A stretch of 47,775 bases of DNA from sequence record PZ445409.1. One strand, written 5' to 3'. Shown piece after piece: positions 20,717-45,166 of the stretch. Source of the stretch: a phage. Position 1 is the stretch's first letter. Every line of letters starts with the position of its first letter. The translations under genes were made by a program, and so were the position numbers. Under the pieces are notes generated by a model. It saw nothing but the letters and a program-made list of their open reading frames with translations. It did no database searches and was not told the DNA's origin.

Positions 20717-20758
20717 ACTATACACGATCCGACAAGCTGGGTTTAGCAAAAAGTGCTA
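20717..20758 (-). promoter_or_regulatory. phage promoter unit upstream of cor (variant element + TATAGT)
   Basis: Minus strand TAGCACTTTTTGCTAAAC then 18 nt then TATAGT; AAGGAG RBS and cor ATG follow. Confidence 0.5.
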
Positions 20759-21128
20759 CATGTTATTTTTTGTTTTCCGGTGTTATCGGATTTAAGACGG
20801 CGTAAATTTAGCGCAAATTTTAGCCAACATAATAACAATAAATAATCAATAAAATAGATATATACATATAAAATCAATAGTTTATTTATTTATGTATGTA
20901 TATTTGTTTTTTCTTGTTATCTGTGTTCCTTGTGGTTTTGGTTGTTTGTGGTGATTTTTCTTTCTGAGTATCTGTATGTGCCATCATTCATGTGTATGTA
21001 TATAATCCGGCGTATCTGAGAGAACAAGGGAACAAGAAAAATAACACATATTAATCATTAACTTACGAGTCAAATTTGTTTTATTGCCATATGAGAACGT
21101 TTAGAAAACAGAAAAAACAAATCACCTA
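20759..21128. repeat. AT-rich regulatory region A with alternating Pu/Py (GTATGTATAT) blocks and T/G-rich core
   Basis: Noncoding; shares TTCCG-GATAAC elements, GTATsTATAT blocks, T/G-rich core and GGGAACAAGAAAAA (21028-21041) with region B in the same orientation. Confidence 0.5.
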
Positions 21129-21156
21129 TTGACTAAACGCATCAAATAGCTAAAAT
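21129..21156 (+). promoter_or_regulatory. sigma70-like promoter (TTGACT-16-TAAAAT) for recombination operon
   Basis: -35 at 21129-21134, -10 at 21151-21156; GAGGA RBS and ATG 21186 downstream. Confidence 0.55.
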
Positions 21157-21185
21157 GCAGGCATACCAACCAATGAGGACGAATC

Positions 21186-22247
21186 ATGAATAAATTTATG
21201 GCTTACACCAGCGCAGAAATGAGCAACGAGCTTTATCACGATCCAGAAGCATGGACGGCTGAATATGTTAGCGGTTCAAGTCTGGCAGAGATTTACAGCA
21301 CTTGCCCTGCTGCGTGGAAGTTCAAGCCTCGCGACGATAAGAGCAAGGCGCTCATTTTCGGTACGCAGTCGCATACCAACTTCGAAAGCAAGGATCTATT
21401 TAATAAAACTTACCGCCGTGCACCAGCGCCGGAAGACTTCAAAGAGTTAATCACAAGTCAAACGGCATTAGCTGCAAAGCTGAAATCTTTTGGCCTGAAA
21501 GGGACAAGCGGAAAGGCTTACCCCGACCTTATCAAAATGATGGTTGATTGTGGCGAAGACCTTAACATCATGTGGTTAATCGACATGATCGCAGAAAGCC
21601 AGGCCAGAGCCGACGGCGTACAGTTAATCGACGCGAAAGATTACGATGCTTGCGTGGCAATGCGCCAGGTTCTGGAATCCATACCGGAACATAACGCCTG
21701 CATGAACAGCCCGACGGCACAGCGTGAATTGTCGTTATTCGGCGAAATCAACGGCGTAAAAGTTAAAGTTCGATGTGATCACGTTGACGTAGTGAAAAAC
21801 GTCACCGCCACGCTGATTGATGGTTATGACGAAAAAGGTCAGCCAATTTGCCGCGATATTATCTATCCAGAAGCGGTTGTTATCACTGACTACAAAACAA
21901 CAATGAGCGCAAATCCGATGGAGTTTATGCGACTGGCTTACAACCACGGCTATTATCTGAAAATGGCGCTGCAACATGATTTATTCAGGAAGGCATATCC
22001 AGACGAGAAGCGCCCTGTAGTTATGCGCCTGTTAGCCCAGGAGAAGAAAGAGCCTTATTTGCCGTTGGCTTTCCGCATGAACAGCGAGCAATTGAAGATA
22101 GGCCGAGTCCAGTATGTTAGCGTGATCCAACAGTTTGCTATGTGCCAGCATCATGACGTATGGCCTGCGTATGCAAACGGTGAGCCGGAAGTTTGCTTGG
22201 ATACGCCTGAATTTGTGCGCCGACAGTTCAAGCAGTATCTGATTTAA
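21186..22247 (+). CDS. PD-(D/E)XK recombination exonuclease (RecE/YqaJ-like)
   Basis: 353-aa ORF, GAGGA RBS; D...VITDYKT nuclease-core-like motif; first gene after sigma70-like promoter 21129-21156; followed by Erf and SSB. Confidence 0.55.
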   Translation: MNKFMAYTSAEMSNELYHDPEAWTAEYVSGSSLAEIYSTCPAAWKFKPRDDKSKALIFGTQSHTNFESKDLFNKTYRRAPAPEDFKELITSQTALAAKLKSFGLKGTSGKAYPDLIKMMVDCGEDLNIMWLIDMIAESQARADGVQLIDAKDYDACVAMRQVLESIPEHNACMNSPTAQRELSLFGEINGVKVKVRCDHVDVVKNVTATLIDGYDEKGQPICRDIIYPEAVVITDYKTTMSANPMEFMRLAYNHGYYLKMALQHDLFRKAYPDEKRPVVMRLLAQEKKEPYLPLAFRMNSEQLKIGRVQYVSVIQQFAMCQHHDVWPAYANGEPEVCLDTPEFVRRQFKQYLI

Positions 22248-22323
22248 ACCGCACAAATAGCTAAACAAATGATTAGCGCGGTGTTATAATTCGCCGCGCA
22301 GGTTAACAAATAATGGATTAATT

Positions 22324-22977
22324 ATGCAGCTATCAGAGAAATTCGATCTTGTACTTCCGGCGCTACACAAAGCGCGTTCAATGTTTGTGAAGGTTAAAAA
22401 AGACCGACAAAACAGCCATCTGAAAAACCGTTACGCCACACTTGACGCTGTACTTGATGCAATAACTCCAGCGTTGATGGATAACGACCTAATGCTAATG
22501 CAGGACGGCAGCCGCATCGAAAATAACACGCTGCGAGTCGAAACAACAGTAATGCACACATCAGGTCAGTGGGTGAAATATTTCTTTGACATCCCAATTG
22601 TGAAGAATGATCCGCAAGGCGTAGGTTCTGCTTTCACCTATGGGCGACGTTATGCGGCGGCGGCAGCGTTCGGTTTAAGCCAGGCTGACGACGATGCGCA
22701 AATCGCTGTTAAGTCTGCGAACGACTGGAAACGCGATCTTGATAAATGTGAGTCAGTACCTGAATTGCAGGAAACATTCAAGAAAGCATGGAGCGCAAGC
22801 GATCCAGCAAGTAAACAGGTCGTTAAGGAACACTACGAGAAACGCAAAGCAGAAATCGAAATCGGCGGCGCGCGCGGTTTTAATCCAGCGCAACCAAAAA
22901 AGAATCTTGCAAGTGATTCCGTTGACACCGCAAAACATGAGCAAGTACAATCGGCTAACATCACCGATTTTGAATAA
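22324..22977 (+). CDS. Erf-family single-strand annealing protein
   Basis: 217-aa ORF; [18 protein letters not shown] motif typical of ERF proteins; between exonuclease and SSB. Confidence 0.65.
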
Positions 22978-23018
22978 AAACGGGGCGCTTGCGCCCCATT
23001 TTCATAGGAGAAAACAAA

Positions 23019-23465
23019 ATGCACGTAGTCACAGGAACGATCAGAAAAGAGCCATACACAAAAGAAGGACAAAGCAACTCCGGCGCTTACAAGATGTATA
23101 TTGTGGAATTGTCGGAGTCTATTAAAGACAGACAGAGTGGTGAACGGATATATTCAAACTATAGCGCAACGTTCTTCGCATCAAGCGATGCAATGCGTCA
23201 TTGGTATGATAACGCGTTGCAGGTTGGTAAAGTCGTTTCCATCTCTGCGGAAGTTCTACGCATCAACCAGCGCGAGCATAACGGTAACAACTATGTAACG
23301 TTGCAGATGGAACAACCACGACTGGTATTCAGCCAGCGCACCGAAGGACAGCAGCAACAGCAGAATCAAGGTGGATGGGGGCAACCGCAACAGCAGCATC
23401 CTCGCCAGCAACCACAGCAAAGCAATCAGCCGCCAATGAATTTTGACGACGACATTCCATTCTGA
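23019..23465 (+). CDS. ssb: single-stranded DNA-binding protein
   Basis: 148-aa ORF, AGGAG RBS; Gln/Gly-rich linker and acidic C-terminal tail ending DDDIPF, hallmark of SSB. Confidence 0.8.
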   Translation: MHVVTGTIRKEPYTKEGQSNSGAYKMYIVELSESIKDRQSGERIYSNYSATFFASSDAMRHWYDNALQVGKVVSISAEVLRINQREHNGNNYVTLQMEQPRLVFSQRTEGQQQQQNQGGWGQPQQQHPRQQPQQSNQPPMNFDDDIPF

Positions 23466-23499
23466 TAACAAAAGCCCCGCATATGCGGGGCATTTTTTT
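23466..23499. terminator. bidirectional intrinsic terminator between ssb and tail-fibre module
   Basis: A-run, hairpin gccccgcatatgcggggc, T7. Confidence 0.65.
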
Positions 23500-24193
23500 A
23501 GTCTAACGTGGTTGGTTTGTTTACCAGTGCCGCTACAACCGCTTTTAGCTCGTCAATTTCTTTTCTCATCTCCTCATTTTCCGCTTTCAGATTCTTGACG
23601 TGGTGAATCAGTGGAACAGTGAGGCGGTCATACATAACGCCTTCCGCCACCATGCCATTACTTGAAGCAATGGCAGGATCTTCTCCTTCTTGCAGCGGTC
23701 GCCAGTGAACGTACTCCGGCGCAACCTCTCCAACTTCCTCTGCAATCAGTCCGTACCATCCCCAATCTTTACGGTCGCTTTCACAAGTTGACCGATACCA
23801 CACAGGACGCATTTCAAGCATCAGATCCGCATATTCATCAATAACCGATTCTACGCTGCGCTTATAACGAGAAGAGGAAGTGGAGCGTAAAACTTGCGAA
23901 ACTCCAGCATTTGGATCAAGCCATAAGTTTGCTGATTGAGCGGTTGTGTTGAGTCTAAACAAATAAAATGCCTCGTTACCAGTCAGGGGGTAAAAACTGC
24001 CACTATACCTTCCGCTTTCCAACTCGGATGATAGATCAGTTTGTTTTAGATACGGTTTCAATTTATTTTCAACATCAGTAGTTGATGCTTTTCCGGCAAC
24101 ATCCTGTTTTAGTGTCGAAACATCCTGATTTATCGTAGAAACATCATTTTTTAGCTTCGTTATATCACTAGGTATAACAGTTACTGTAGCCAT
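23498..24193 (-). CDS. tail fibre-like protein with C-terminal intramolecular chaperone (S74-like) domain
   Basis: 231-aa ORF, AAGGAG RBS; C-terminus has SDRKDWGWYGLIAEEVGEVAPEYV segment and coiled coil typical of auto-cleaving fibre chaperone domains. Confidence 0.55.
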   Translation of the reverse strand: MATVTVIPSDITKLKNDVSTINQDVSTLKQDVAGKASTTDVENKLKPYLKQTDLSSELESGRYSGSFYPLTGNEAFYLFRLNTTAQSANLWLDPNAGVSQVLRSTSSSRYKRSVESVIDEYADLMLEMRPVWYRSTCESDRKDWGWYGLIAEEVGEVAPEYVHWRPLQEGEDPAIASSNGMVAEGVMYDRLTVPLIHHVKNLKAENEEMRKEIDELKAVVAALVNKPTTLD

Positions 24194-24205
24194 TTTCCTA
24201 ACTCC

Positions 24206-24484
24206 TTAAGCCCATTCTCTAATAGGCTGATCTAACTCAACCACGTAGTCGTTAAAAATTACGGCATCAAACTTATCATCAATGATTCGCACATTGACGA
24301 AATAGCCGTCGTTCTTTTGCGCAATCTCCTCGCCATCGTCAGATCGTGCAATTACTGTGTAAGTAGTGCCGATTACATCAAGCATGATAGCGTTTTGAAG
24401 CTCATCATTATCATGCCATTCGATTTCGTCCAGAAAGGCGGAAAACTCCGCCTTGTCTACAAATTTCAGTGTTAAATCGCGCAT
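24206..24484 (-). CDS. hypothetical small protein (fibre-associated)
   Basis: 92-aa ORF from ATG 24484 with TAATG overlap to tail fibre stop (track start 24625 lies inside the fibre gene). Confidence 0.45.
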   Translation of the reverse strand: MRDLTLKFVDKAEFSAFLDEIEWHDNDELQNAIMLDVIGTTYTVIARSDDGEEIAQKNDGYFVNVRIIDDKFDAVIFNDYVVELDQPIREWA

Positions 24485-26451: not shown

Positions 26452-26469
26452 CTGTAATTTTCTCCTGTA

Positions 26470-26488
26470 TAGCACTTTTTGCTAATGA
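26470..26488 (-). promoter_or_regulatory. inverted copy of conserved element abutting RBS of side tail fibre gene
   Basis: Coding (minus) strand reads TCATTAGCAAAAAGTGCTA then tACAGGAGA RBS then ATG at 26451. Confidence 0.45.
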
Positions 26489-26516
26489 CAACATTGAGAA
26501 TAGCAGTTTTGCAGGC

Positions 26517-26541: not shown

Positions 26542-26557
26542 TAATACTAGCGGAGTT

Positions 26558-27542: not shown

Positions 27543-28019
27543 TTAGCTATTCGTGCTGTTATCACCTTTGTAGAATCTTCCGCCTGGTTCGTAGTCTGAA
27601 TTTTTGACTACGCGCAACATTTCGTATTTGTCGCAACGGGTAGTAAGAGGCTTGCCGTTAGAATCAAACCGCAGATCTGGACGACAAAACGAGGCGCGGT
27701 ATCCTTTGCATCCATTATATTTGTAGTCGTTATGCACCTTTTGTGCTCCAGCGGCTGAAATCATACCACGCTTTCGCCATTGGTTAACAACTTGCTGAGA
27801 TACGCGCAGACGTCGAGCCATAGCAGGAACGCCGCCGTAATACTCGATCAGAATGTCAAGGCGAGATTTCAGGCTTGCTTTTACCTCATCTCGCAGGATA
27901 AGAAATCCGGTTCGATGTTTTCGTGGCTTTTTGTCTTTACCTCGTCGCGTTCCGTTGTTACCGTTAATAGTGCGCTTGTCGATCTCACCAGTAGACACTG
28001 CAATTCGTGCATCTTTCAT
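27543..28019 (-). CDS. XRE/Cro-like HTH DNA-binding protein
   Basis: 158-aa ORF with GAGGTGA RBS; helix-turn-helix GGVPAMARRLRVSQQVVNQWRKRG; Cys-rich C-terminal part; inverted copy of the conserved 19-bp element in its 5-prime UTR. Confidence 0.55.
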   Translation of the reverse strand: MKDARIAVSTGEIDKRTINGNNGTRRGKDKKPRKHRTGFLILRDEVKASLKSRLDILIEYYGGVPAMARRLRVSQQVVNQWRKRGMISAAGAQKVHNDYKYNGCKGYRASFCRPDLRFDSNGKPLTTRCDKYEMLRVVKNSDYEPGGRFYKGDNSTNS

Positions 28020-28031
28020 CTAGTCACCTCA

Positions 28032-28074
28032 TAGCATTTTTTGTTAAAACAGTTTATTGTAATGAGTCTATTAT
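28032..28074 (+). promoter_or_regulatory. phage promoter unit (19-bp element + 18-bp spacer + TATTAT)
   Basis: TAGCATTTTTTGTTAAAAC at 28032-28050, hexamer 28069-28074; 32 nt before helicase ATG. Confidence 0.6.
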
Positions 28075-28106
28075 ATACTCCAAATGGCATTTTTTAAAGG
28101 TTTAAG

Positions 28107-30104: not shown

Positions 30105-30523
30105 TGGCTATAACTGATAAAGGCGATTATCTTGAGTTTTACGAAAGGGATCCAACCGACACGAGAAGGGAAGTTAATCACCAGATAGATAGTTTTCAGT
30201 GGTTGACTTATGCTCATCCTTATTTGCTGGCGTGGCATACGGTAAACGAGAATGAGAAGTCTAAAGCAACGGCGATGATTGATCAGCAGTCCGGCTTGGT
30301 TAAGGGAGTAAGCGATTTCATCATCCTGATTGGTTTAAACGGAAAATATCCCTTTGCGGCGATTGAGATCAAACGAGTGAATAAATCAGGCAAGGGGAAA
30401 GCATCACCAGTCAGCGATGAACAAAAGGCTTTTTTGCGTCGCGTTCGCAGCTTAGGAGGATTCGCTGCGGTAGCCTACGGATTCAATCAGTTTAAGTTGG
30501 CTATTGAATACATGCTTAAATAG
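30104..30523 (+). CDS. VRR-NUC domain nuclease
   Basis: 139-aa ORF, TAATG overlap with helicase; PD-(D/E)XK-like DFIIL...EIKR...QKAFL. Confidence 0.6.
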   Translation: MAITDKGDYLEFYERDPTDTRREVNHQIDSFQWLTYAHPYLLAWHTVNENEKSKATAMIDQQSGLVKGVSDFIILIGLNGKYPFAAIEIKRVNKSGKGKASPVSDEQKAFLRRVRSLGGFAAVAYGFNQFKLAIEYMLK

Positions 30524-30563
30524 CACTTTTTGTTAAAACTGGCGCGATGGATTGCGCCATAAT
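30521..30563 (+). promoter_or_regulatory. phage promoter unit (element + spacer + CATAAT)
   Basis: TAGCACTTTTTGTTAAAAC begins with VRR-NUC stop TAG; hexamer 30558-30563; upstream of dam. Confidence 0.6.
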
Positions 30564-31333: not shown

Positions 31334-31591
31334 ATGAAAAAAGAGAGAAGCGTTTATTTAAATGAAACTGGCGAATGGTTGTTATTTCGCGCTATGGTGT
31401 GCGATGCACTTGATAAAAATCCTAACGTGAAAAAGATGATTGATTGCGATCCGTGGGAATTTTCAAGCGCATTAGATATGAGCTTTGAGGAGACAAGAAA
31501 ACTCCCGCTTGAAAAATGGCACGAACAAATCAGAAATGACATGCAAGAGTTTGTTGATTCGTGGAATTTTCAGCACGGAATGATCCACTAA
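31334..31591 (+). CDS. hypothetical protein
   Basis: 85-aa ORF with GGAG RBS; its TAA stop is directly followed by promoter unit 31592-31634. Confidence 0.5.
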   Translation: MKKERSVYLNETGEWLLFRAMVCDALDKNPNVKKMIDCDPWEFSSALDMSFEETRKLPLEKWHEQIRNDMQEFVDSWNFQHGMIH

Positions 31592-31634
31592 TAGCACTTT
31601 TTGTTAAAACGCCCGGCCTAGTGTCGGGCATAAT
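31592..31634 (+). promoter_or_regulatory. phage promoter unit (element + spacer + CATAAT)
   Basis: Element directly after TAA stop; 18-bp spacer gcccggcctagtgtcggg identical to the minus-strand unit at 34810-34852. Confidence 0.6.
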
Positions 31635-32173: not shown

Positions 32174-33289
32174 ATGAAAAATGTAAAAATTACAGATGAG
32201 CAATTCAAGATCGAACGGGCGGCAGGTAAGACATATAAACAGATCGCTCAAGAGTACGGAATGAATGTGAGAAGCGTCGAGCGTCGCGCGGCGCGTCTTG
32301 CAAAGCAAGGACAGTTATCGACCATTGGAGCGCCTGGTTTTGGTGTTCATGGTGAGTCAGTAATGACCGACAAAGAAGGCAACATAATCCTCAAGTGGAC
32401 CAAAACCAGCAAGGACAAAGAGCAATTAGAAGCATTGATGCGCGCAGCAATGGAGGCGTTTAGCGAGGAAGTGCCGCGATTAGATCCAGTTCCATTGCAG
32501 GAGCGTGACTATAATGAAACGCTTTCATTGTATCCGATCTTTGACATGCACTTAGGCGCTATGGCCCATAAGCACGAATGCGGCGAAAATTGGGATACTG
32601 CGACGGCGGAGCGCGTTATGAATAACTTTATCGACTATGCTTTGATGTGCGCACCTGACAGTGAAAAGGCTGTTATCCTGATTGGTGGCGACATGCTTCA
32701 TAGCGATGGCCTGGAGGCTGTGACCCCTGCAAGCGGTCACGTACTTGATCAAGATAGCCGATATGCAAAATTGGTTTACGTTGCAATACGTGCAATGCGC
32801 CGCGCAATTAATAAAATGCTGTTAAAGCATAAACATGTTGAGGTCCAGATCGTTGAGGGCAATCACGACCAATCAGGAATGATTTGGCTACGCGCAGCAA
32901 TGGCGGCAGCATATGATAACGAGCCGCGCGTTTACGTTGATGTTTCTCCTCGCGTTGTTCACCACACGCAATACGGAAAAACTTTCCTTGCGTACCATCA
33001 CGGGCACACAGTGCGTAAACCGGAGACTTTGCTAATGATGTGCGCGTCAGATTGGCGGGAGGACTTCGGAAACTCAAAAACGATGTATGCGCACGTAGGG
33101 CACTGGCATCACCAGACCGTGACGGAAACGTCGCTTGGGATCGTGGAGGTACATAGCACCCTGGCGGCAAAAGACGCATACGCCGCGCGCGGTGGCTGGA
33201 GATCTCGACGCCGTGCAGCGGTTATCATTTACGACAAAGAGCATGGAGAAGTTGGGCGATTTGTTCACTATCCAGAAATGATGAATTGA
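32174..33289 (+). CDS. HTH domain fused to calcineurin-like metallophosphoesterase
   Basis: 371-aa ORF from ATG 32174; N-terminal sigma-70-region-4/resolvase-type HTH (KTYKQIAQEYGMNVRSVERRAARL); phosphoesterase motifs DMH, GGDMLHSDG, GNHD, GHWHH. Confidence 0.6.
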   Translation: MKNVKITDEQFKIERAAGKTYKQIAQEYGMNVRSVERRAARLAKQGQLSTIGAPGFGVHGESVMTDKEGNIILKWTKTSKDKEQLEALMRAAMEAFSEEVPRLDPVPLQERDYNETLSLYPIFDMHLGAMAHKHECGENWDTATAERVMNNFIDYALMCAPDSEKAVILIGGDMLHSDGLEAVTPASGHVLDQDSRYAKLVYVAIRAMRRAINKMLLKHKHVEVQIVEGNHDQSGMIWLRAAMAAAYDNEPRVYVDVSPRVVHHTQYGKTFLAYHHGHTVRKPETLLMMCASDWREDFGNSKTMYAHVGHWHHQTVTETSLGIVEVHSTLAAKDAYAARGGWRSRRRAAVIIYDKEHGEVGRFVHYPEMMN

Positions 33290-34809: not shown

Positions 34810-34852
34810 AATATACCCGACACTAGGCCGGGCGTTTTAACAAAAAATGCTA
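34810..34852 (-). promoter_or_regulatory. phage promoter unit (element + TATATT)
   Basis: Minus strand TAGCATTTTTTGTTAAAAC + gcccggcctagtgtcggg + TATATT; inverted near-identical copy of 31592-31628. Confidence 0.6.
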
Positions 34853-35044
34853 TTCCATACGCTTTACCGTAACCAGTAATACACCATCATCATTGCATAA
34901 AACATGTTCAGTGGTGCTAAAAGCGCGCATATCTGAATAAAGTAGCGTAAGTAAAGCATGAATAAAATCCTCATGTGATATTGAATTTACGGCGCAGTGC
35001 TTCAAGATCTTGTCTATTAGCTTTTGCCTGGAACAATTCATCAT
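34850..35044 (-). CDS. hypothetical small ORF (alternative frame)
   Basis: 64-aa ORF whose TAG stop is the TAG of the conserved promoter element (as for several other genes); overlaps 3-prime end of 34971-35366 by 74 nt in another frame. Confidence 0.25.
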   Translation of the reverse strand: MMNCSRQKLIDKILKHCAVNSISHEDFIHALLTLLYSDMRAFSTTEHVLCNDDGVLLVTVKRME

Positions 35045-35366
35045 CGCCCATCTCCCCTATTCTCGCCATATCCCTGATCCAGTCGTTGCGCATACCATCC
35101 AGGCTATACAATTCGAATCCGAAAGGCCGCTTTGACGATCCTTTGGACCAGTATTTTCCGCAGACCCCATCTATATAACCAGCCGTCATCATTCTTGCGC
35201 AAAATTCCTTAGATGCAAGGCTGGCGAACATTCGCGGCGTAAGTCCGGCGGCCCGTGCGAGCCGCTCACATTCTCTATGCTGATAGATAAATTTGGCTAT
35301 GTGCTGCCTGTTAAACCAGTCGTATGACTCACACCATTTATACAGATCAAGCAAAAACATAATCAT
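34971..35366 (-). CDS. hypothetical protein
   Basis: 131-aa ORF; ATG overlaps stop of upstream ATPase gene (ATGA), indicating translational coupling. Confidence 0.5.
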   Translation of the reverse strand: MIMFLLDLYKWCESYDWFNRQHIAKFIYQHRECERLARAAGLTPRMFASLASKEFCARMMTAGYIDGVCGKYWSKGSSKRPFGFELYSLDGMRNDWIRDMARIGEMGDDELFQAKANRQDLEALRRKFNIT

Positions 35367-36946
35367 CCCAGCAGTATTGGATTGACAAAAATAACACCAT
35401 TAATCACACAAACATAATTTCTTTCTTCCAGCATTGGCAGCAAGTGCCCTTCTATCCTCTTCATTACGCCAGCCTGACCAACGAAAGGTTTTACCTTTCT
35501 CGCTGATTCGTACAGGGCGCGAATATTCAGGATCCCTTTGTTAGCCTTGCCGTGTCTAGTGATCAATTCAATCAATTTACCCATTTCAGCATCATCACCA
35601 GCATAACCAGAAGCATTGGCGGCGCTAATGTATGTTTTGCTCAATTCCTGAAACATGATCAGCGCCTCTTGCATTGTTTCCACGTCGATCTCTTTCGACT
35701 TCTGCGGGTATCCGGCAGGATTAAACCAGTTGCGGATAACATGCAGGACGGAAGCAAGCCTGATCACCTGTTTATCCATTTTACCCAGCGCACCGCGTAA
35801 CATTGTATGAGAATACTTTCCGCCGTCTGCAAGATGCGGTTCCATATCCTGGCGAGCAATGTTGAGCACTCGCATAGCTGAACGGCTTATTTTCAGCGAT
35901 ATATTTGATTCGCTCATGATGTTATGCACCAATTGATAATATTGGGCCTTCAATTCAGGATCCACCGCCTCATAGGTAGAATCACCATTTTCATCAATGA
36001 ATGAGCGACGGCCTAAGAATGATTCCTCACGGACCAACAAAAAGCGCTCACTCACACCGATACCGCGCGATCCAGCGTCCATGATTCCGCTTATCGTTTC
36101 ATCCTGGGCTATAACGCTCATACATCCAAGCGCGCGAAAACTCATGTTATTGTCAGCATTAGCACGGGCAATTGATACGTGACCATTATCCCACGCCTTA
36201 AGCACTAGCTCGCTGTTAGTCTTCCTTTCGCTATTGGCATAGGTCAAGCCTAACAGGCTGTTAATACTTGTTGCTTCGTCAGATATTACGGCAAAGTTAC
36301 CTTGCTTGTTGTTGATTTTCGCCAAGCCTTCTGGAGTGGTATCTGAAACAGGGAAAGTTATATCACACATCTTTTCCAGCTTCTCCTCCAGATCCTCTTT
36401 TTCCTGGTATAGAGATTCCATATCAGCGCCTGATCTTTCGCTTTTCATCTCCTTTGCAAGACCTGCCAACTTTGCCTGTATTTTCTTTCTTTCCTTGCGG
36501 CGTTGCTCGTTGATCTTCTCAACTTCCGCAATCATCGGAGCAATAGCCATACTGTTGATCGCAGATTTACCAGTTGACGGCGGCTGGCTTGTAACTACGT
36601 AAAGCGCAGTCGGCTGATCTGTTCCGTGGTAGTCAACTGTGAATCGACCAAGCATAGCGGCAGAAATACATCCGATAAAGTGCATGTAGGCCGATGATTC
36701 AGGGAATTGAACAGATCTCGCAAGATTGCGCGCCAGCTTACCAACTACATCAACATCATTCCCAAGTGAAATAACAGGGTAGCGGTCGTTACCGCCGTTA
36801 ATATCTTCCACCTGGCCCCAATAGCTTGAAGATTGGCGGTATCCGTTGGCCTGAATGGATACACGAACAGGGGAAATACCTTGAGATTCGGCGGTTTCAA
36901 TGATTTGTTTCGGTGATAACTGACTTGTTTCAAATGAAAAATTCAT
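35363..36946 (-). CDS. P-loop NTPase (DUF3987/primase-helicase-associated-like)
   Basis: 527-aa ORF with AGGAG RBS; deviant Walker A (QPPSTGKS), central charged coiled-coil segment; driven by promoter unit 36974-37016. Confidence 0.5.
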   Translation of the reverse strand: MNFSFETSQLSPKQIIETAESQGISPVRVSIQANGYRQSSSYWGQVEDINGGNDRYPVISLGNDVDVVGKLARNLARSVQFPESSAYMHFIGCISAAMLGRFTVDYHGTDQPTALYVVTSQPPSTGKSAINSMAIAPMIAEVEKINEQRRKERKKIQAKLAGLAKEMKSERSGADMESLYQEKEDLEEKLEKMCDITFPVSDTTPEGLAKINNKQGNFAVISDEATSINSLLGLTYANSERKTNSELVLKAWDNGHVSIARANADNNMSFRALGCMSVIAQDETISGIMDAGSRGIGVSERFLLVREESFLGRRSFIDENGDSTYEAVDPELKAQYYQLVHNIMSESNISLKISRSAMRVLNIARQDMEPHLADGGKYSHTMLRGALGKMDKQVIRLASVLHVIRNWFNPAGYPQKSKEIDVETMQEALIMFQELSKTYISAANASGYAGDDAEMGKLIELITRHGKANKGILNIRALYESARKVKPFVGQAGVMKRIEGHLLPMLEERNYVCVINGVIFVNPILLG

Positions 36947-36973: not shown

Positions 36974-37016
36974 ATGTTACCGCACCAATACTACCCTTAT
37001 TTGTCAAAAAGTGCTA
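36974..37016 (-). promoter_or_regulatory. phage promoter unit (variant element + TAACAT)
   Basis: Minus strand TAGCACTTTTTGACAAATA + 18 nt + TAACAT; upstream of ATPase gene. Confidence 0.5.
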
Positions 37017-37025
37017 TTTGATCCG

Positions 37026-37650: not shown

Positions 37651-37693
37651 ATTATGCCCGACTCAAGGTAGGGCGTTTTAACAAAAAGTGCTA
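37651..37693 (-). promoter_or_regulatory. phage promoter unit (element + CATAAT)
   Basis: Minus strand element starts with methyltransferase-like gene stop TAG; hexamer at 37656-37651. Confidence 0.6.
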
Positions 37694-38377
37694 TTTTGAG
37701 TTTGCCTCAAATACGGCGCGAGCAAATCCTCGCGGAGTGAGGGAGCGTAGTTGCTTTGTTCTGGCAGACTTACCTCCTAAAAACTTCCAACCCCAAAAGA
37801 ACATTACTCCCTCATCATTGCGTAACGGCTTGCGTTCCGGTTCGGTAAATCCGTTGCCGCACCAGATAGCCGTCCTTTTTGTGTAGCCATCCTTTAGCGG
37901 CATCTTGGGGTGAAAAGATCCATCGGATTCGTCCAGGTAGTTACCAAAATCGCGCGGATTGAAATAAAAATCAGGCTTGCGCCATAGCGTTGATAGTCGG
38001 CCTACAGGATTCTCAGCCATCCAGGGAACACCGAAATGATTCCCGACAGTTTCAACCATGATTGCATTTTTGAGCGCGATCTGAATATCATCATCGCTTC
38101 GCACGTGCTTGCTTCCTGATTGGGCAAACATGGTGCAGTCTGGAAATCCAAATACAATATCTGGTTTTGGAATATCCATCTTACTGATTCTTTCAATGAA
38201 ATTTTCATCAATCCACATATTAACATAATGCAGATTTTCATTCTTCATCTTGATGAAATATTCGCCGTGATTTCCCTCATCAGCGTTAAAGCAATAGCAT
38301 TGATAGCCAGCCTTCGCATATTCAAGCAGCATGATTCCAGATCCATCAAACATTGAGTAAGCAACTTTATTTCCCAT
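37691..38377 (-). CDS. DNA C5-cytosine methyltransferase-like protein lacking a target-recognition domain
   Basis: 228-aa ORF from ATG 38377 (track start 38437 is TTG); motif I SMFDGSG, motif IV-like DIVFGFPDC, motif VI-like MAENPVG, motif X-like RSLTPRGFARA; no region long enough for a TRD; TAG stop is first triplet of promoter element. Confidence 0.55.
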   Translation of the reverse strand: MGNKVAYSMFDGSGIMLLEYAKAGYQCYCFNADEGNHGEYFIKMKNENLHYVNMWIDENFIERISKMDIPKPDIVFGFPDCTMFAQSGSKHVRSDDDIQIALKNAIMVETVGNHFGVPWMAENPVGRLSTLWRKPDFYFNPRDFGNYLDESDGSFHPKMPLKDGYTKRTAIWCGNGFTEPERKPLRNDEGVMFFWGWKFLGGKSARTKQLRSLTPRGFARAVFEANSK

Positions 38378-38894: not shown

Positions 38895-38902
38895 TCATCA
38901 CC

Positions 38903-39127
38903 TCAAAACGGAAAACAGCGAGGACAGCTAGGATCGAAATCGCATCCACAATCATTAACAATCATAGTTGGATCTGCAAATATTGCGCTTGATTCAAGAT
39001 TCATATCCATATCACCTAGCGCCTCATCAAGAGTCTTAATTTTATATGCCACTTCAAGCGCCGCCTCTTTATTTAGTCCAGCATCTTCTGCCATTTGAAG
39101 TCGCTCAAAAAAACCGTCTTGACTCAT
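38903..39127 (-). CDS. hypothetical acidic protein with C-terminal Cys cluster
   Basis: 74-aa ORF; ATG overlaps stop of upstream small membrane ORF; ends CGCDFDPSCPRCFPF. Confidence 0.5.
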   Translation of the reverse strand: MSQDGFFERLQMAEDAGLNKEAALEVAYKIKTLDEALGDMDMNLESSAIFADPTMIVNDCGCDFDPSCPRCFPF

Positions 39128-39510: not shown

Positions 39511-39618
39511 TTAAATATCCTCAATTGAAATATGAATGACGTGGTGCTCTTTTTCCGTCGCCGCCGTAATGGTCATTTGCAACCGCCACCATCCAAGCGT
39601 TTTTGAAAATAAATAGCC

Positions 39619-39831: not shown

Positions 39832-40028
39832 TAGATGATCTCCATGTATGTTTCAAAGCCATTTAACTTGAACAGGCCGTTTTCACACTTGCGCACGTTC
39901 CAGGTTAGGCCGGAGTGGTACGCTTCCATATCTTCAAGGTCAATGGTGATTTCAGCACCTTTCTTAAACAGACCTTTCTCATGAGACTTGTCGCGCTTGA
40001 TAACCTTAACGTCAACCTGCGTTTCCAT
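39831..40028 (-). CDS. hypothetical protein
   Basis: 65-aa ORF from ATG 40028 with GAGGA RBS 7 nt upstream (track start 40034 is TTG); first gene after promoter unit 40060-40102. Confidence 0.5.
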   Translation of the reverse strand: METQVDVKVIKRDKSHEKGLFKKGAEITIDLEDMEAYHSGLTWNVRKCENGLFKLNGFETYMEII

Positions 40029-40059
40029 TTTCAATTCCTCGTTCGTTGTCGATGCGTGT

Positions 40060-40102
40060 AATGTACAGGAATGCGAGGATTGAGTTTTAACAAAAAGTGC
40101 TA
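40060..40102 (-). promoter_or_regulatory. phage promoter unit (element + TACATT)
   Basis: Minus strand element 1 nt after TAA stop; hexamer followed by conserved ACACGCATC leader. Confidence 0.6.
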
Positions 40103-40103
40103 T

Positions 40104-40582: not shown

Positions 40583-40836
40583 TTTTTCTTCTCCTGCAAT
40601 AAGCAAACATCATTGATAAAATCAGCGCGGCCTTTAATGTTGCTGATGTGGAAAGTCTTTTCAGCGTACAGGCCATCACCTTCAATCACGATCATTACGC
40701 GAGTCGGTTTATTCACGGGCGCACATGAAAAGAGTGGGCGCACCGGAAGAAATTTAGTAGTCACATCCAGGTTATCCCTGGCCGCCCTGCAAAATGCCTC
40801 CGCCAGATCTAAATCATTTTCGGTAATCACCGCCAT
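40570..40836 (-). CDS. hypothetical protein (paralog of 40370-40582)
   Basis: 88-aa ORF; TAATG overlap with upstream gene. Confidence 0.5.
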   Translation of the reverse strand: MAVITENDLDLAEAFCRAARDNLDVTTKFLPVRPLFSCAPVNKPTRVMIVIEGDGLYAEKTFHISNIKGRADFINDVCLLQEKKKCWM

Positions 40837-41108
40837 TACTTCTTGATCTCCTCACTGATAAATTTCAGCACCCGGCGCAAGAAAACTTCGTTGTTGATAG
40901 TCGCTGGCAATTCTTCTTTCACCTCTTGCGGCAGATAGATATTGCCGTGCCAGGTCAAGCAATCGTAGTTGATACGATAAGAGCAAAGCCACTCGCAATC
41001 GTTATCTGCTTCCCAAATGCAGAGTTGCAGAACATCTCCTAAGTTCTCAACAGTCAGATCCAGACCGTGACGCTTAGCGAAATTGAAAGTGGTTTTGCTG
41101 ATGTTCAT
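40836..41108 (-). CDS. hypothetical protein (first gene of leftward operon)
   Basis: 90-aa ORF with AGGAG RBS, 30 nt after promoter hexamer at 41144-41149. Confidence 0.5.
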   Translation of the reverse strand: MNISKTTFNFAKRHGLDLTVENLGDVLQLCIWEADNDCEWLCSYRINYDCLTWHGNIYLPQEVKEELPATINNEVFLRRVLKFISEEIKK

Positions 41109-41143
41109 TTGCTATCTCCTGAGCGGTTTGTTTTGATGTGTGT

Positions 41144-41186
41144 AATGTACCCGATCAGGTGGCCTGAGTTTTAACAAAAAGTGCGA
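41144..41186 (-). promoter_or_regulatory. phage promoter unit (variant element + TACATT), first leftward promoter
   Basis: Minus strand TCGCACTTTTTGTTAAAAC + 18 nt + TACATT + ACACACATC leader; AGGAG RBS; ATG 41108. Confidence 0.6.
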
Positions 41187-41218
41187 TTTGACGGTTAGCG
41201 CCAGGATTGTGATAGAAA

Positions 41219-41306
41219 TAATCAAAAGTAATCATTCGTAATCAAATCACGTCAAAATGATGATTGCCTTTGCAAATTTGATGAGAAAAGTAATCACGTT
41301 TAATCA
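41219..41306. repeat. 10-bp-phased GTAATCA/TAATCA iteron-like repeats
   Basis: TAATCA at 41219, 41229, 41239 and at 41291, 41301 (exact 10-bp spacing within each set); partial inverted copy TGATTG at 41261. Confidence 0.5.
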
Positions 41307-41726
41307 TTGGTTGCAGTGGAGATAGTGAAACCTTCCCCTCTTGCCTCACTTTTCCGCCTGGCTGTCAGTGGTTGTTATGTTCCGTTTTCGCCTGTTCTTT
41401 TGTTGACCTTCCGCAAAATACGATAACAAAAAATAACAAACAATACCTATATAATACATTGAAAAATAAGGATTATTTATTTATATGTATCTATATATTC
41501 TCTTTTGTTATCTTGGTTATTGTGGTATTTGGTGGGGGTATATAGTTTTTGTGTATCTATATGTGTGTATGGGTATGTAGGGGCATATATATCTATATGG
41601 CACTTTCCGCGATAAAACTTCGATAACAAGCAATGATAACATTGATTTATAAGGAAAAATAACGCCCATATTGTTATTGTGCCACCATATAAAATTGATA
41701 AAACACGCGGGAACAAGAAAAAACAG
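41307..41726. repeat. AT-rich regulatory region B, paralogous to region A
   Basis: TTCCGC..CGATAAC at 41409-41427 and 41605-41627; GTATCTATAT blocks at 41487, 41553, 41589; T/G-rich core 41499-41545; GGGAACAAGAAAAA at 41709-41722. Confidence 0.5.
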
Positions 41727-41755
41727 TTGACACATTAAATAGCATTATTGATAAT
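41727..41755 (+). promoter_or_regulatory. near-consensus sigma70 promoter (TTGACA-17-GATAAT with TG) for rightward operon
   Basis: -35 at 41727-41732, extended -10 TGATAAT at 41749-41755; preceded by GGGAACAAGAAAAA element. Confidence 0.6.
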
Positions 41756-41783
41756 GCCCACACCTAACAACCAGGAGGTAGAA

Positions 41784-42248
41784 ATGAGCGAGCAATCATT
41801 CACTGACACGCTGCGCCGTGCCGCTATTATGCTTGCCAATGGCGAGGAAGAGACGATCAAGATTCCTGACGCGTATTTGCAGGTCCACATGTTCGGCAAG
41901 AAGTCGGCAAGCAATCCGGCGGCCTACATTCGCCAGATCATGAGTCGAGTGCCAGAAGTCGCCGAGCGGGGGCGTGTATCCGTTACACGTGGCGTTTACG
42001 GGCCGGAAGATGAAAACTTCGGTAGCACTTTCTACGAGGTGCGGATTGTTGAAGGCCGTCGCAAGGTTTACAACAAAGAGGCACTGGAAAGGGCAGTGCG
42101 CCAGGCTAAGCGCAAGGTTGCAGAGGCGATCATTGATATGTCACCAAACCTGGCAAACTATGCGCCGGAAGAGTATGAAACATTATCAAAGGCCGTCGCT
42201 GACTTTCACGCGATGATCAAAAAAACTTTCCTGGAGGATGAGCAATGA
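41784..42248 (+). CDS. hypothetical protein (first gene of rightward operon)
   Basis: 154-aa ORF from ATG 41784 with AGGAGG RBS, downstream of near-consensus sigma70 promoter 41727-41755. Confidence 0.55.
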   Translation: MSEQSFTDTLRRAAIMLANGEEETIKIPDAYLQVHMFGKKSASNPAAYIRQIMSRVPEVAERGRVSVTRGVYGPEDENFGSTFYEVRIVEGRRKVYNKEALERAVRQAKRKVAEAIIDMSPNLANYAPEEYETLSKAVADFHAMIKKTFLEDEQ

Positions 42249-42505
42249 AAAAGGCATTAATCGGCGTTTTGGTGGCAATGACACTCCTGACCGGATGCGA
42301 AAAGGCATCAGAATCAACGGTTGTCGTAGGCGTGGAGTCAGATTTCAAAGTCGGTCGCCTGTTCACTGTTGACGGATGCACAGCATACAGATTCTATGAT
42401 AACGGTCGCGCGATCTATTACACCAGTTGCAAAGGCGCAACGGATAGCACGTACAACAGCGGAAAGAACGTAATGCACCAGCAAGTCACAACAGATATTA
42501 AATAG
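42245..42505 (+). CDS. putative lipoprotein
   Basis: 86-aa ORF, ATGA overlap; signal peptide with lipobox LLTGC; small Cys-containing mature domain. Confidence 0.6.
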   Translation: MKKALIGVLVAMTLLTGCEKASESTVVVGVESDFKVGRLFTVDGCTAYRFYDNGRAIYYTSCKGATDSTYNSGKNVMHQQVTTDIK

Positions 42506-42545
42506 CACTTTTTGCAAAAACAGATTGTCGGGCTTGCGGTATAGT
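42503..42545 (+). promoter_or_regulatory. phage promoter unit (variant element + TATAGT)
   Basis: TAGCACTTTTTGCAAAAAC begins with lipoprotein stop TAG; hexamer 42540-42545. Confidence 0.55.
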
Positions 42546-42576
42546 AAGCCCATCAACAACAAACGAGGATTAAATC

Positions 42577-42840
42577 ATGGCTAACAAGATCGAATTTTTT
42601 AAAGCGGTAGACATTATTGATGGCGCGCCTAGCTTCTTTGCCATCCATTCTATTGACGGCAAGGATATTGGGTACAACGTTATCCGTCGAGATGGAATCT
42701 CAAAACTTAGTGACCTGGTAGGTCATGTTGTGGCAAACGGGAAATGTGCATGGCCCGATTCGCCACGAGAGCCACGCCGCCGCGACATGGTAGAGCCTGT
42801 TCTGCTTTACACGCTGGTAGTAGAAGGAGAAAATAAATGA
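42577..42840 (+). CDS. hypothetical protein
   Basis: 87-aa ORF with GAGGA RBS after promoter unit 42503-42545. Confidence 0.5.
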   Translation: MANKIEFFKAVDIIDGAPSFFAIHSIDGKDIGYNVIRRDGISKLSDLVGHVVANGKCAWPDSPREPRRRDMVEPVLLYTLVVEGENK

Positions 42841-43022
42841 TTTGGTTACTTGCTTTTTTGGTTGTTTTTCTTTACATTTCAGGCTTGTTTACGTTCCGCG
42901 CGTTGGTGAAATATTCTTACACGACAGACAAAGACGATAAAATCGTTCTCGCTTTCTGGTTTGTTTGGGTGTGGTTAGCAATTTACGAGATCATCAGAGA
43001 CAAACAGAAATTTGAGTGGTGA
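42837..43022 (+). CDS. small membrane protein
   Basis: 61-aa ORF, ATGA overlap; two hydrophobic helices. Confidence 0.5.
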   Translation: MIWLLAFLVVFLYISGLFTFRALVKYSYTTDKDDKIVLAFWFVWVWLAIYEIIRDKQKFEW

Positions 43023-43081
43023 TTCTTGCTATGGCGCATTCATGCAGTGCGCCATGTTGAGAAAACCTAAAGGGGGAAATG

Positions 43082-43213
43082 ATGCGTAACTTTGAAAAAA
43101 TCATTACCAAAAAGAAGCGTCGCGGGTACGATGAGCATGTGGAGCTTGTGAAAAAGCAACGCAAGAAGCGCGGGAAAAAATTTAATGCGATTTTTCGCTA
43201 TGGAGATCATTAA
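43082..43213 (+). CDS. hypothetical small basic protein (not in ORF track)
   Basis: 43-aa Lys/Arg-rich ORF with AAGGGGG RBS; translated by hand. Confidence 0.35.
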   Translation: MRNFEKIITKKKRRGYDEHVELVKKQRKKRGKKFNAIFRYGDH

Positions 43214-43215
43214 TC

Positions 43216-43806
43216 ATGAAACGAGACATTATCATCCTTAATGGGCCGCCAGGTTGCGGGAAGGACACTATTGCAGCTTACCTAACGGGCCATCGTTACC
43301 CTGCTGTCAAGGCGTCATTCAAACAGCCGATGTTCGATATTGCTTTTTCTATGCTGGGCGTGTACCGATACGATGAATTTATGGACCTGTACAACGACCG
43401 AGAGCAAAAAGAAAAGCCTCAAGTTATCTTAGGCGGCAAGTCACCTCGACAATTCATGATCTGGATTAGCGAGGATGTAATGAAGCCAGTTTTTGGGGAT
43501 CACTATTTCGGGCGTCGAATGGTTGAAGAGATTCACGAGATGTACCGAGATTTGGCGGTTGTGATCAGTGATGGCGGATTCCCCGAAGAAATCAAGCCGC
43601 TGGTTAAGGCAGGGCATGAAGTGCATATTTGCCGATTGCATCGCGACGGCTTCACGTTTGCTGGCGATTCGAGAGACTACATTGACCTGAGCGGTTATCA
43701 CTATCGAATCCATCACTATGATTTCCACTTGCAGGACGGTAAGCCGGAGCTGGCTGTAAGCGAGATCGTCAATGCAGTCAAATGGAAGCACACACAGATT
43801 AAATAG
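43216..43806 (+). CDS. P-loop kinase, deoxynucleoside monophosphate kinase-like
   Basis: 196-aa ORF; N-terminal ILNGPPGCGKDT P-loop as in phage dNMP kinases; TAG stop is first triplet of promoter element 43804-43846. Confidence 0.5.
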   Translation: MKRDIIILNGPPGCGKDTIAAYLTGHRYPAVKASFKQPMFDIAFSMLGVYRYDEFMDLYNDREQKEKPQVILGGKSPRQFMIWISEDVMKPVFGDHYFGRRMVEEIHEMYRDLAVVISDGGFPEEIKPLVKAGHEVHICRLHRDGFTFAGDSRDYIDLSGYHYRIHHYDFHLQDGKPELAVSEIVNAVKWKHTQIK

Positions 43807-43846
43807 CACGAATTGCTAAACGCGGGGTTATCGGCCCCGCTATAAT
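43804..43846 (+). promoter_or_regulatory. phage promoter unit (variant element + TATAAT)
   Basis: TAGCACGAATTGCTAAAC begins with kinase stop TAG; hairpin gcggggttatcggccccgc; hexamer 43841-43846. Confidence 0.55.
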
Positions 43847-43876
43847 GCTCACATCAACAATCAAGAGGAAATCACA

Positions 43877-44257
43877 ATGGTTAACATCAGAAAAATTCGC
43901 GTCGGCACTAAATTCTTAGTTACTTACGCAATTCCAGATAGCGGAATGAAGAAGGGCCAGATTGTTAAGGTTGATAGCAAAAGGTTCGGAATCCCTGGTA
44001 TCAATGGCTATCTAATCAATAAAGATCTTGGATTCGACGGCTTCGCTATCCGTGCGCTTGAGGGTATTGTTGCAACTCTTAAACGAATTACTAATCATCG
44101 CGGCTGCCCAATCAAGACGATTAAAGCGCCAATAAATTACGGCAAACTGGATAATCGTCGAATCCGCCGCCTGGCGCGTAACGCGTTAAAATTCCGTGGC
44201 GTAGGCGATGATTTCTACTATGGATACAAGAGGATTGCGCGCAATGCTGGGAAATAA
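43877..44257 (+). CDS. hypothetical protein
   Basis: 126-aa basic ORF with AGAGGA RBS after promoter unit. Confidence 0.5.
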   Translation: MVNIRKIRVGTKFLVTYAIPDSGMKKGQIVKVDSKRFGIPGINGYLINKDLGFDGFAIRALEGIVATLKRITNHRGCPIKTIKAPINYGKLDNRRIRRLARNALKFRGVGDDFYYGYKRIARNAGK

Positions 44258-44356
44258 CAATAAAGCAACGAATCCTAAGCCACCTTTTGATTTTCATTCC
44301 GCAATGATTGCGGTATTATCAATGCTACTTTTTCTTTATAGCATGAGGGCGCTACT

Positions 44357-44620
44357 ATGGTTTTTAACGCATTGAAACGACTGTTTAAGCCGGAATACCG
44401 GATCGTTGCTTGCACAGAATGCAAGATTTATTATCTGCAACGCCGCCGCGTTATTAGTGGGGATTGGGAATATCTGACGGATGATGCTTTCGGCTTTTGG
44501 GCTATGGAGTTCAATAGCTACAGCGAAGCGCTCGAATACGCTAAAAAGTTGCACAAGTTCAGACCTTACAAGCTGCGTTTGCTGGTTGTCAAAAAGTGCG
44601 ACGTATGGGATCACGAATGA
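44357..44620 (+). CDS. hypothetical protein
   Basis: 87-aa ORF with GAGGG RBS; hairpin then TATTAT 38 nt upstream. Confidence 0.5.
   Translation: MVFNALKRLFKPEYRIVACTECKIYYLQRRRVISGDWEYLTDDAFGFWAMEFNSYSEALEYAKKLHKFRPYKLRLLVVKKCDVWDHE
44586..44601 (+). promoter_or_regulatory. inverted copy of conserved element 15 nt before ATG 44617
   Basis: TTGTCAAAAAGTGCGA lies inside the 3-prime end of ORF 44357-44620. Confidence 0.35.
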
Positions 44621-44793
44621 AAAGAGTAATTATCACCTTTATTGCCCTTATCGCTGGTTCCCACTTGGCATATGGGTATAGCGGCATTGTTGAGTCAATC
44701 GGCGGAATGATTATCTTCCTAGCTGGCGCATGTTACGGCTACGGCGATGGATTTAAAAACGGCAAGCGTTACATCCTGACCGGGAAGAAATAA
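44617..44793 (+). CDS. small membrane protein
   Basis: 58-aa ORF from ATG 44617 (ATGA overlap); two Gly-rich hydrophobic helices. Confidence 0.45.
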   Translation: MKRVIITFIALIAGSHLAYGYSGIVESIGGMIIFLAGACYGYGDGFKNGKRYILTGKK

Positions 44794-44835
44794 TGTTTAA
44801 TCGCGCCGCTTCGGTGGCGCTAAAAGGAGGAAAAA

Positions 44836-45123
44836 ATGGCTAAAAGCAATCGTAAGATGTTGATTAACGCATTCGAAAAGGCAGCGCTTGAGCGTGGCTG
44901 GAATGACTCATTTCACACGGCAAACTGTATCCGCCGTTACGGATTCAAGAGTTGTCGCTCATGGGCGCGAGAAATGGCTTCATGGTATGATCTTGATGCG
45001 CATTACCTTGATATGGATTGCGCCCTGGTTGAAATGATTGAGCAGGCAGCACTAGAGAATCGACCATTAACGCAATATGATTTTGACGATTTTGTGCGCG
45101 ATGAAATCTATTACATGAGCTAA
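44836..45123 (+). CDS. hypothetical protein
   Basis: 95-aa ORF with AAGGAGG RBS preceded by a UUCG-tetraloop hairpin (44803-44820). Confidence 0.5.
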   Translation: MAKSNRKMLINAFEKAALERGWNDSFHTANCIRRYGFKSCRSWAREMASWYDLDAHYLDMDCALVEMIEQAALENRPLTQYDFDDFVRDEIYYMS

Positions 45124-45166
45124 TAGCACTTTTTGTTAAAACTTCCGCAAGGGCATTTGGTAAAGT
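45124..45166 (+). promoter_or_regulatory. phage promoter unit (element + TAAAGT)
   Basis: TAGCACTTTTTGTTAAAAC directly after TAA stop; hexamer 45161-45166. Confidence 0.5.

Follow-up and report, generated by a model that had tools for sequence, protein, structure and literature searches.

Marboxes are the binding sites of MarA, SoxS and Rob, which are monomeric activators that each carry a pair of helix-turn-helix motifs (HTH), and they are described by a looser consensus, GCAnnWWnTGnnAAA (PMC12052159), and by a stricter one, GCAHWWWWTGYYAAA (PMC6900184). In class II marbox promoters a forward box, which by the micF definition reads CACT-7X-AAA, overlaps the -35 region with its centre at about -41, and such promoters have a canonical -10 hexamer and a start site but no recognisable -35 hexamer. 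Here we describe a repeated intergenic element of the phage sequence PZ445409.1 which matches these boxes in sequence and such promoters in geometry. The whole stretch of 47,775 nucleotides is referred to as the window; it shares about 99% identity with the virulent T1-like coliphage Escherichia phage tonijn (Drexlerviridae, Tempevirinae, Warwickvirus). How T1-like phages control their transcription without a polymerase or sigma factor of their own is a long-open question.

The element itself is not new to the literature. According to the 2024 re-annotation of phage TLS (PMC11447400), TLS has 21 copies of a 21-nucleotide direct repeat, aaATAGCACnnnTTGnTAAAA, of which 18 are intergenic (DR1-DR18), co-oriented with transcription and located about 76 nucleotides upstream of start codons, and T1, Rtp and Rogue1 carry the repeat too. 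Its function was left open, a stoperator, an enhancer-binding site or an UP element being proposed, and only three canonical sigma70 promoters were found in TLS; to the authors of the TLS and T1 genome papers the repeats were still unexplained in 2024. The copies in the window are intergenic, co-oriented and about 76 nucleotides upstream of start codons as well and represent the same element (aaATAGCACnnnTTGnTAAAA), with TTT, GAA and AAA subtypes, so that the motif is already described for T1-like phages, of which a preliminary description of the window had not been aware. However, neither the phased -10 hexamer nor the identity with the marbox nor a host factor is mentioned in the searchable text of PMC11447400, and the searchable literature contains no report that ties marboxes, MarA or SoxS to T1-like phages and no start-site mapping in Drexlerviridae.

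The 19-mer TAGCAYTTTTTGTTAAAAC has 12 matches with at most three mismatches in the window (0.07 expected), and all twelve units of the preliminary description were recovered at their positions when the copies were printed with their flanks. The conserved block is longer than the 19 bp assigned to it and comprises 20-22 bp (AAATAGCAC...AAAAC), with (A)ATAGCAC-N5-TGYTAAAAC as the consensus of the conserved 20-mer. GCAC, TG and AAA are invariant, while GCAC may be followed by TTT, GAA, AAA or TAA and TTG by T or C. The copies at 43804(+) and 36998(-) are more diverged than the rest; both fit the looser core. Beyond the twelve units noted before, further copies were detected at 1566-1585(+), 6190-6209(-) and 9948-9967(-), and a degenerate one at 26470-26488(+). 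Every copy in the window is intergenic or overlaps a stop codon, and the element begins, as had been noticed before, at or directly after the stop codon of the upstream gene (TAA-ATAG or TAG).

The scan of related T1-like genomes that had been suggested was carried out in T1, TLS, Rtp, mtp3 (a Webervirus of Klebsiella) and A120 (a Tempevirinae record), and revealed 14-20 copies of the core per genome, where dinucleotide shuffles predict 0.7-2.2. The core was not enriched in a Vibrio myovirus whose helicase is related (2 copies, 1.1 expected), and a scan of IMG/VR yielded only additional T1-like contigs and single chance matches. The box is essentially constant in Tempevirinae, Tunavirinae, Braunvirinae and the Klebsiella Webervirus; the helicases of these subfamilies are only about 50-65% identical, yet the box shows no drift. 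The motif is strongly enriched, intergenic and family-wide, which supports the preliminary description.

In all 12 units the hexamer downstream of the element has A at position 2 and T at position 6, in agreement with the preliminary description, and the spacer of 18 bp applies to 11 of them, the cor unit having 17 bp. The proposed check of the hexamer phasing was based on 98 element copies from six Drexlerviridae genomes: nAnnnT is found exactly 18 bp after the element in 78 copies, which is far beyond chance, at 17 bp in seven, and at every other offset in no more than 14. The G+C content of the 12 spacers ranges from 0.28 to 0.78, mostly from 0.5 to 0.78, compared to 0.447 for the window. 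A sequence logo of the 77 units with 18-bp phasing displays unforced conservation at A-51, A-50, T-49, A-48, C-44, T-40, Y-37, T-36, A-32 and C-31 and furthermore at G-14 (63 of 77), T-12, T-10, C-1 and A+1 (66 of 77). Allowing spacers of 17-19 bp results in 84 units with a -10-like hexamer, of which 66 (79%) carry G-14 and 34 (40%) carry TG at -15/-14; the best match to the -35 hexamer averages 2.4 of six positions in this set. T-12, A-11, T-10 and T-7 are conserved in the -10 hexamer of the units, and conservation extends 3' of it with C-1, A+1 and an A/CA-rich leader. The short leader with a Shine-Dalgarno sequence and ATG after the hexamer was present as described, and in the nine units with an assigned ATG it measures 24-30 nucleotides from the predicted start site to the start codon.

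The phased -10 hexamer, G-14, C-1 and A+1 together with a poor -35 are typical of genuine sigma70 promoters without a -35 hexamer. The earlier view that the units look like real promoters of activator-type geometry is thus well supported on sequence grounds, as is their location ahead of genes for replication and modification and of many small early genes. A scan of 27.5-47.4 kb gave 29 canonical sigma70 sites, no enrichment over the 36.8 expected. Two other promoter assignments were rejected: TTGTTA within the element lies 22 bp from the -10 hexamer and has no alternative -10 hexamer 17 bp downstream, and for a divergent promoter with GTGCTA as the TGn-TA start the downstream sequence is inconsistent across the 12 units.

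With regard to the marbox, the looser consensus GCAnnWWnTGnnAAA has 15 exact matches in the window (1.6 expected), all of which are element copies and which include all 12 noted units, and the stricter consensus GCAHWWWWTGYYAAA has 12 (0.11 expected), again exclusively element copies. Extended by one 5' base (ATAGCACTTTTTGTTAAAAC or ATAGCACGAATTGCTAAAAC), the element has the sequence of the E. coli marbox. The positions that vary among the phage copies coincide with the degenerate positions of the marbox consensus, and the invariant ones with its A site (GCAC) and B site (YAAA). In all 12 units GCAC...AAA reads toward a start codon about 76 nucleotides downstream of the beginning of the box. 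Relative to the predicted start sites the box spans about -50 to -31, with its centre at about -41, and so takes the place of the -35 hexamer.

The closest described promoter is that of micF, a class II promoter dependent on MarA, SoxS, Rob or RamA, for which cryo-electron microscopy structures with SoxS, RamA and Rob are available. Read directly from E. coli K-12, micF has the marbox ACAGCACTGAATGTCAAAAC, exactly 18 bp, the hexamer TAGAAT and the annotated RNA 5' end eight nucleotides further on, placing the centre of its box at -41.5. It shares with the phage units a marbox in forward orientation that has the GCAC and (Y)AAA sites and agrees with the phage consensus at 14-15 of 20 bases including the AAAAC end, the distance of exactly 18 bp to a TAnnnT hexamer, the centre at about -41 and the lack of a usable -35 hexamer. 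In contrast to micF, the phage boxes are perfect consensus sites which occur 12-20 times per 48-kb genome, the units would drive protein-coding phage operons, and their spacers often carry terminator hairpins.

Consensus sequence, forward orientation, micF register and a canonical -10 hexamer without a -35 hexamer are thus all found in the phage units, and according to a rough estimate the probability of matching sequence, orientation and register by chance is below about 1e-3. Judged from the sequence, the designation of the element as phage-specific is wrong, given the exact match to the host MarA/SoxS/Rob marbox, the class II layout and the 18-bp gap of micF. We consider it probable that the units would act as promoters of class II with Rob, MarA or SoxS of the host as their activators.

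Other known systems resemble the units in part. The middle promoters of T4, which depend on MotA and AsiA for sigma appropriation, also retain the -10 hexamer, have an activator box in place of the -35 hexamer and are present in many copies in early and middle regions. The MotA box TGCTTtA is centred at about -30, 11-13 bp from the -10 hexamer, and requires both the phage MotA and AsiA. In the units described here the box is centred at about -40.5 to -41, lies 18 bp from the -10 hexamer, has another sequence and comes with no evident phage activator, so that the suggested analogy with T4 is not the closest one. Class II promoters of CRP and FNR such as galP1 have their site at -41.5 overlapping the -35 hexamer, the activator contacting sigma region 4 and the alpha subunits; however, CRP and FNR sites are palindromic and bound by dimers, whereas the asymmetry of the phage box suits a monomeric activator with two HTH motifs. 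The stoperators of mycobacteriophage L5 are likewise numerous, short, asymmetric and intergenic sites oriented with transcription, but they are repressor sites of a temperate phage which are not coupled to a phased -10 hexamer, whereas T1-like phages are virulent. A sigma54 promoter, TGGCAC-N5-TTGC with GG at -24 and GC at -12, was rejected since the element (TAGCAC-N3-TTGY) lacks the GG, has the wrong spacing and is followed by a phased sigma70-type -10 hexamer.

In order to assign a protein to the box, 10 and then 53 non-structural phage open reading frames (ORFs) were compared with Pfam, which revealed no match to HTH_18 or HTH_AraC, and a profile of approximate MarA, SoxS and Rob sequences gave a best E value of 0.14 among 4250 six-frame ORFs of five genomes. 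On the basis of these ORFs, a phage-encoded AraC/XylS activator was rejected. Searches with the early proteins against PHROGs and PDB sequences were uninformative. Neither of the two phage proteins previously put forward as regulators appears to suit an asymmetric marbox: the product of 27543-28019, the only annotated regulator, is a Cro/YdaS-like protein with a single HTH, and the N-terminal HTH match of 32174-33289 is sub-threshold and not of the two-HTH type. The latter gene, on the plus strand, is predicted to encode a metallophosphoesterase ('DNA repair exonuclease') whose N-terminal HTH weakly resembles sigma70 region 4 (Pfam Sigma70_r4_2, E = 0.0018). The constancy of the box across diverged subfamilies is easier to reconcile with constraint by a conserved enterobacterial factor of the host than with a phage protein evolving alongside the box and, taken together with the failure to find an AraC/XylS-type protein, favours host Rob, MarA or SoxS. 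We infer that the activator would be supplied by the host.

It seems unlikely that the units are promoters whose box is read by a phage-encoded factor, be it the Cro/YdaS-like protein (27543-28019) as a dimer on TAGCA-N5-TGYTA centred at about -42 or an immediate-early protein, so that the similarity to the marbox would be due to convergence or mimicry. Self-complementarity extends over four to five of the five positions of the half-site, the regulator gene, which is conserved in T1, TLS and Rtp, is served by a canonical promoter of its own (P57 in TLS), early proteins of unassigned function are available, and a cascade from few sigma70 promoters via a phage activator to many box promoters is a familiar phage design. 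However, the flanks are asymmetric, with AAA upstream and AAAAC downstream, and the 3' AAA is the most conserved part, both of which are explained by the B site of the marbox and not by a symmetric dimer site; half of the copies carry T instead of the C required for symmetry. That the box should agree exactly with two published MarA consensuses and also have the micF spacing is furthermore improbable by chance (below 1e-3 as a rough estimate), and the box shows no drift between subfamilies with helicases of only about 50-65% identity.

Promoters that work independently of an activator by means of an extended or strong -10 hexamer, with the A/T-rich box serving as an UP-like or DNA-bending element for the C-terminal domain of the alpha subunit (alpha-CTD), would account for the frequency of G-14 and TG, the near-consensus -10 hexamers and the runs of T and A inside the box, and UP-element or enhancer roles have been proposed by the TLS authors (PMC11447400). 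Nevertheless, this appears quite improbable: the invariant positions hold G and C (GCAC, G-38) rather than A/T tracts, the element overlaps the -35 region at -50 to -31, and the exact marbox match and the fixed 18-bp register are left unexplained. UP elements are A/T-rich alpha-CTD sites at about -40 to -60 without G/C-specific positions; an UP element was rejected in view of the invariant G-47, C-46, C-44 and G-38 and the span from -50 to -31. Very improbable is a signal that acts not as a promoter but at the RNA level in read-through transcripts, such as processing, stability or nut-like antitermination, or as a stoperator roadblock, the stoperator having been suggested in PMC11447400. The units lie between co-oriented genes and are probably transcribed from upstream as well, three spacer hairpins are annotated as terminators in the GenBank record of T1, and hairpins with compensatory variation are found in the spacer or around the hexamer (stems of at least 6 bp in 22 of 77 units compared to 2.3% in controls). 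Still, the phased -10 hexamer, G-14, C-rich discriminator and A+1 are a DNA promoter signature, the hairpins vary in position relative to the box, some copies are on the antisense strand, the pattern of variable and invariant positions suits a protein-DNA site of MarA-type proteins, and the hairpins are better explained as embedded terminators, which are compatible with promoters. GCACUUU resembles the boxA sequence GCUCUUU, but a boxA/nut-like element was rejected because the GAA variants lack it.

Several points weigh against the assignment of the units to Rob, MarA or SoxS. Rob is constitutive and abundant; in cells that are not under stress most of its activity is absent, MarA and SoxS being present in small amounts, so that it is questionable whether a fast lytic phage could depend on them. 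The good -10 hexamer with G-14 may by itself provide substantial activity independent of an activator. TAGCA-N5-TGYTA is a near-palindrome which a dimeric phage protein could bind, and a non-homologous phage protein made from one of the few canonical promoters might read the box instead, candidates being the Cro-like regulator and the product of the DUF7174 gene (41748). The sequences of MarA, SoxS and Rob behind the profile search were approximate, the copies at 1566, 6190 and 26470 near late genes are outside the class II geometry, and start-site mapping, binding studies and genetics for any T1-like phage are absent from the searchable literature.

According to the class II model a monomeric host activator with two HTH motifs would bind the box; at time zero this would probably be constitutive Rob, to which MarA or SoxS might add when the cells are stressed, as might RamA when the host is Klebsiella or Salmonella. 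By touching sigma70 region 4 and the alpha-CTD the activator would bring the host RNA polymerase to the phased hexamer T-12 A-11 T-10 A-9 A/G-8 T-7, usually with G-14, and transcription would start at the conserved A about seven nucleotides downstream of the hexamer, giving a CA-rich leader of 24-30 nucleotides with a Shine-Dalgarno sequence. The 18-bp spacer would be free of sequence constraint and often house a GC hairpin able to terminate transcription of the upstream gene. As an outcome, about 12-16 small early and middle transcription units would be expressed without a phage RNA polymerase or sigma factor, and most of the early and replication genes would probably be turned on in this way. 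This is an immediate, cheap and falsifiable model; if it is true, a virulent phage family would be built on host activators of stress response and antibiotic resistance, a situation of which we know no report. Gene expression of these phages would then depend on the state of marA, soxS, rob and also ramA in the host and on inducers, bile salts and salicylate among them. T1-like phages are notorious contaminants of fermenters, and their Webervirus relatives are used against Klebsiella.

Putative promoter units and further copies of the element in the window (boxes given as marbox sequence; start sites predicted)
Feature	Position	Strand	Box	Spacer	-10 region	Predicted +1	ATG	Remarks
cor-like lipoprotein	20717..20759	-	GTAGCACTTTTTGCTAAACC (20740-20759)	17 bp	TATAGT (20717-20722)	~20710		
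Helicase and VRR-NUC genes	28031..28074	+	ATAGCATTTTTTGTTAAAAC	18 bp	TATTAT (28069-28074)	~28081	28107	
Dam methylase	30520..30563	+	ATAGCACTTTTTGTTAAAAC	18 bp, GCGC...GCGC hairpin	CATAAT	~30570	30598/30604	
Small ORFs and phosphoesterase	31591..31634	+	consensus		CATAAT	~31641	31668	
Promoter unit	34810..34853	-	ATAGCATTTTTTGTTAAAAC		TATATT	~34803	34773	
Second DNA helicase gene (35363-36946)	36974..37017	-	ATAGCACTTTTTGACAAATA		TAACAT	~36967		diverged box
Promoter unit	37651..37694	-	consensus		CATAAT	~37644	37618	
Promoter unit	40060..40103	-	consensus		TACATT	~40053	40028	
First unit of leftward early cluster	41144..41187	-	ATCGCACTTTTTGTTAAAAC		TACATT	~41137	41108	
Promoter unit	42502..42545	+	ATAGCACTTTTTGCAAAAAC		TATAGT	~42552	42577	
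GAA variant unit	43803..43846	+	ATAGCACGAATTGCTAAACG	CGGGG...CCCCG hairpin	TATAAT	~43853	43877	
Promoter unit	45123..45166	+	consensus		TGG-TAAAGT	~45173	45199	extended -10
Extra complete unit	9924..9967	-	ATAGCACTTTTTGTTAAAAG (9948-9967)	18 bp	TGA-TAGATT			missing from the preliminary description
Sigma70-like site before major capsid gene	6185..6212	+	reverse consensus (6190-6209, -)	16 bp, formed by the box	TGc-TATCAT			-35 TTGCAC
Copy at terminase/portal junction	1566..1585	+	ATAGCACTAATTGCTAAAAA		no phased -10			followed by terminator hairpin
Degenerate copy abutting tail-fibre gene start	26470..26488	+	TAGCACTTTTTGCTAATGA		no -10			reverse to that gene; kept in T1 and Rtp

Two of the 12 spacers, 31611-31629(+) and 34815-34833(-), score as intrinsic terminators when taken with the T-rich -10 region. 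The spacer hairpin of the first of these units is GCCCGGCCTAGTGTCGGG, and the second shares this hairpin. The other ten units do not fit a rho-independent terminator, that is a GC stem-loop with a T-run. In T1 the annotated terminators among the spacer hairpins are located at 38973-39001, 39998-40024 and 41980-42007. The T1 annotation and the terminator-like spacers suggest that units join upstream termination and re-initiation, and spacers with a GC hairpin and a T-rich -10 region resemble compact terminator-promoter units. The inverted repeats that bracket the -10 hexamer in 29% of the 77 units (perfect stems of at least 6 bp) differ in sequence between copies, and the hexamer would sit in the loop. 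In the window they comprise a 9-bp repeat at 36974 and 6-bp repeats at 42502 (GGGCTT/AAGCCC) and 45123 (AAGGGC/GCCCTT).

The layout of the capsid site, in which the reverse box forms the spacer, is also found in T1 (TTGACG/TATTAT), TLS (TTGAAC/TATATT) and A120. A protein bound to this box would be expected to occlude the capsid promoter, which suggests that one factor both activates early genes and restrains the late capsid promoter. More tentatively, and we regard this as rather doubtful, nearly all early and middle transcription might run on the host mar/sox/rob(/ram) regulators, with the reverse capsid box repressing late genes and titration acting as a timer: the 12-20 perfect-consensus marboxes per genome would serve the host stress activators, and the replicating box-rich phage DNA would titrate the activator and so provide a built-in switch from early to late expression. 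In that case phage growth would be tied to multidrug-resistance regulators, clinical mutants with upregulated mar or ram would make better hosts, and mutants in rob, marA and soxS poor ones.

Box copies at the starts of late genes (portal, 1566-1585(+); tail fibre, 26470-26488(+); terS of T1, 8363(+)) have no phased -10 hexamer and adjoin terminators or abut a ribosome-binding site. The extra unit at 9924-9967(-) is antisense to the major tail gene and directed into its 3' end, toward a bidirectional terminator, and is kept in T1 (18849, -); it might be the source of a short antisense RNA.

Among the canonical sigma70 matches of the early region the best one, TTGACA-17-GATAAT at 41727-41755(+), is located just before the DUF7174 gene (41748-42248), which is likely the first rightward immediate-early gene. 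In the region 28020-28106 a leftward canonical promoter of the Cro/YdaS-like regulator (TTTAAA-17-TATAAT, 28098-28070) overlaps the -10 hexamer of the rightward helicase unit. Between the helicase and regulator promoters lies the palindrome CAAATGGCATTT (28081-28092), which is kept in TLS and A120; it is unique in the window and was thus rejected as a second regulon signal.

The record A120 (MG065671.1), deposited as UNVERIFIED under the name 'Campylobacter phage A120', is a T1-like Tempevirinae genome whose helicase is 88.7% identical to that of the window. It contains 16 marbox cores of the E. coli type, and its Campylobacter host label looks doubtful.

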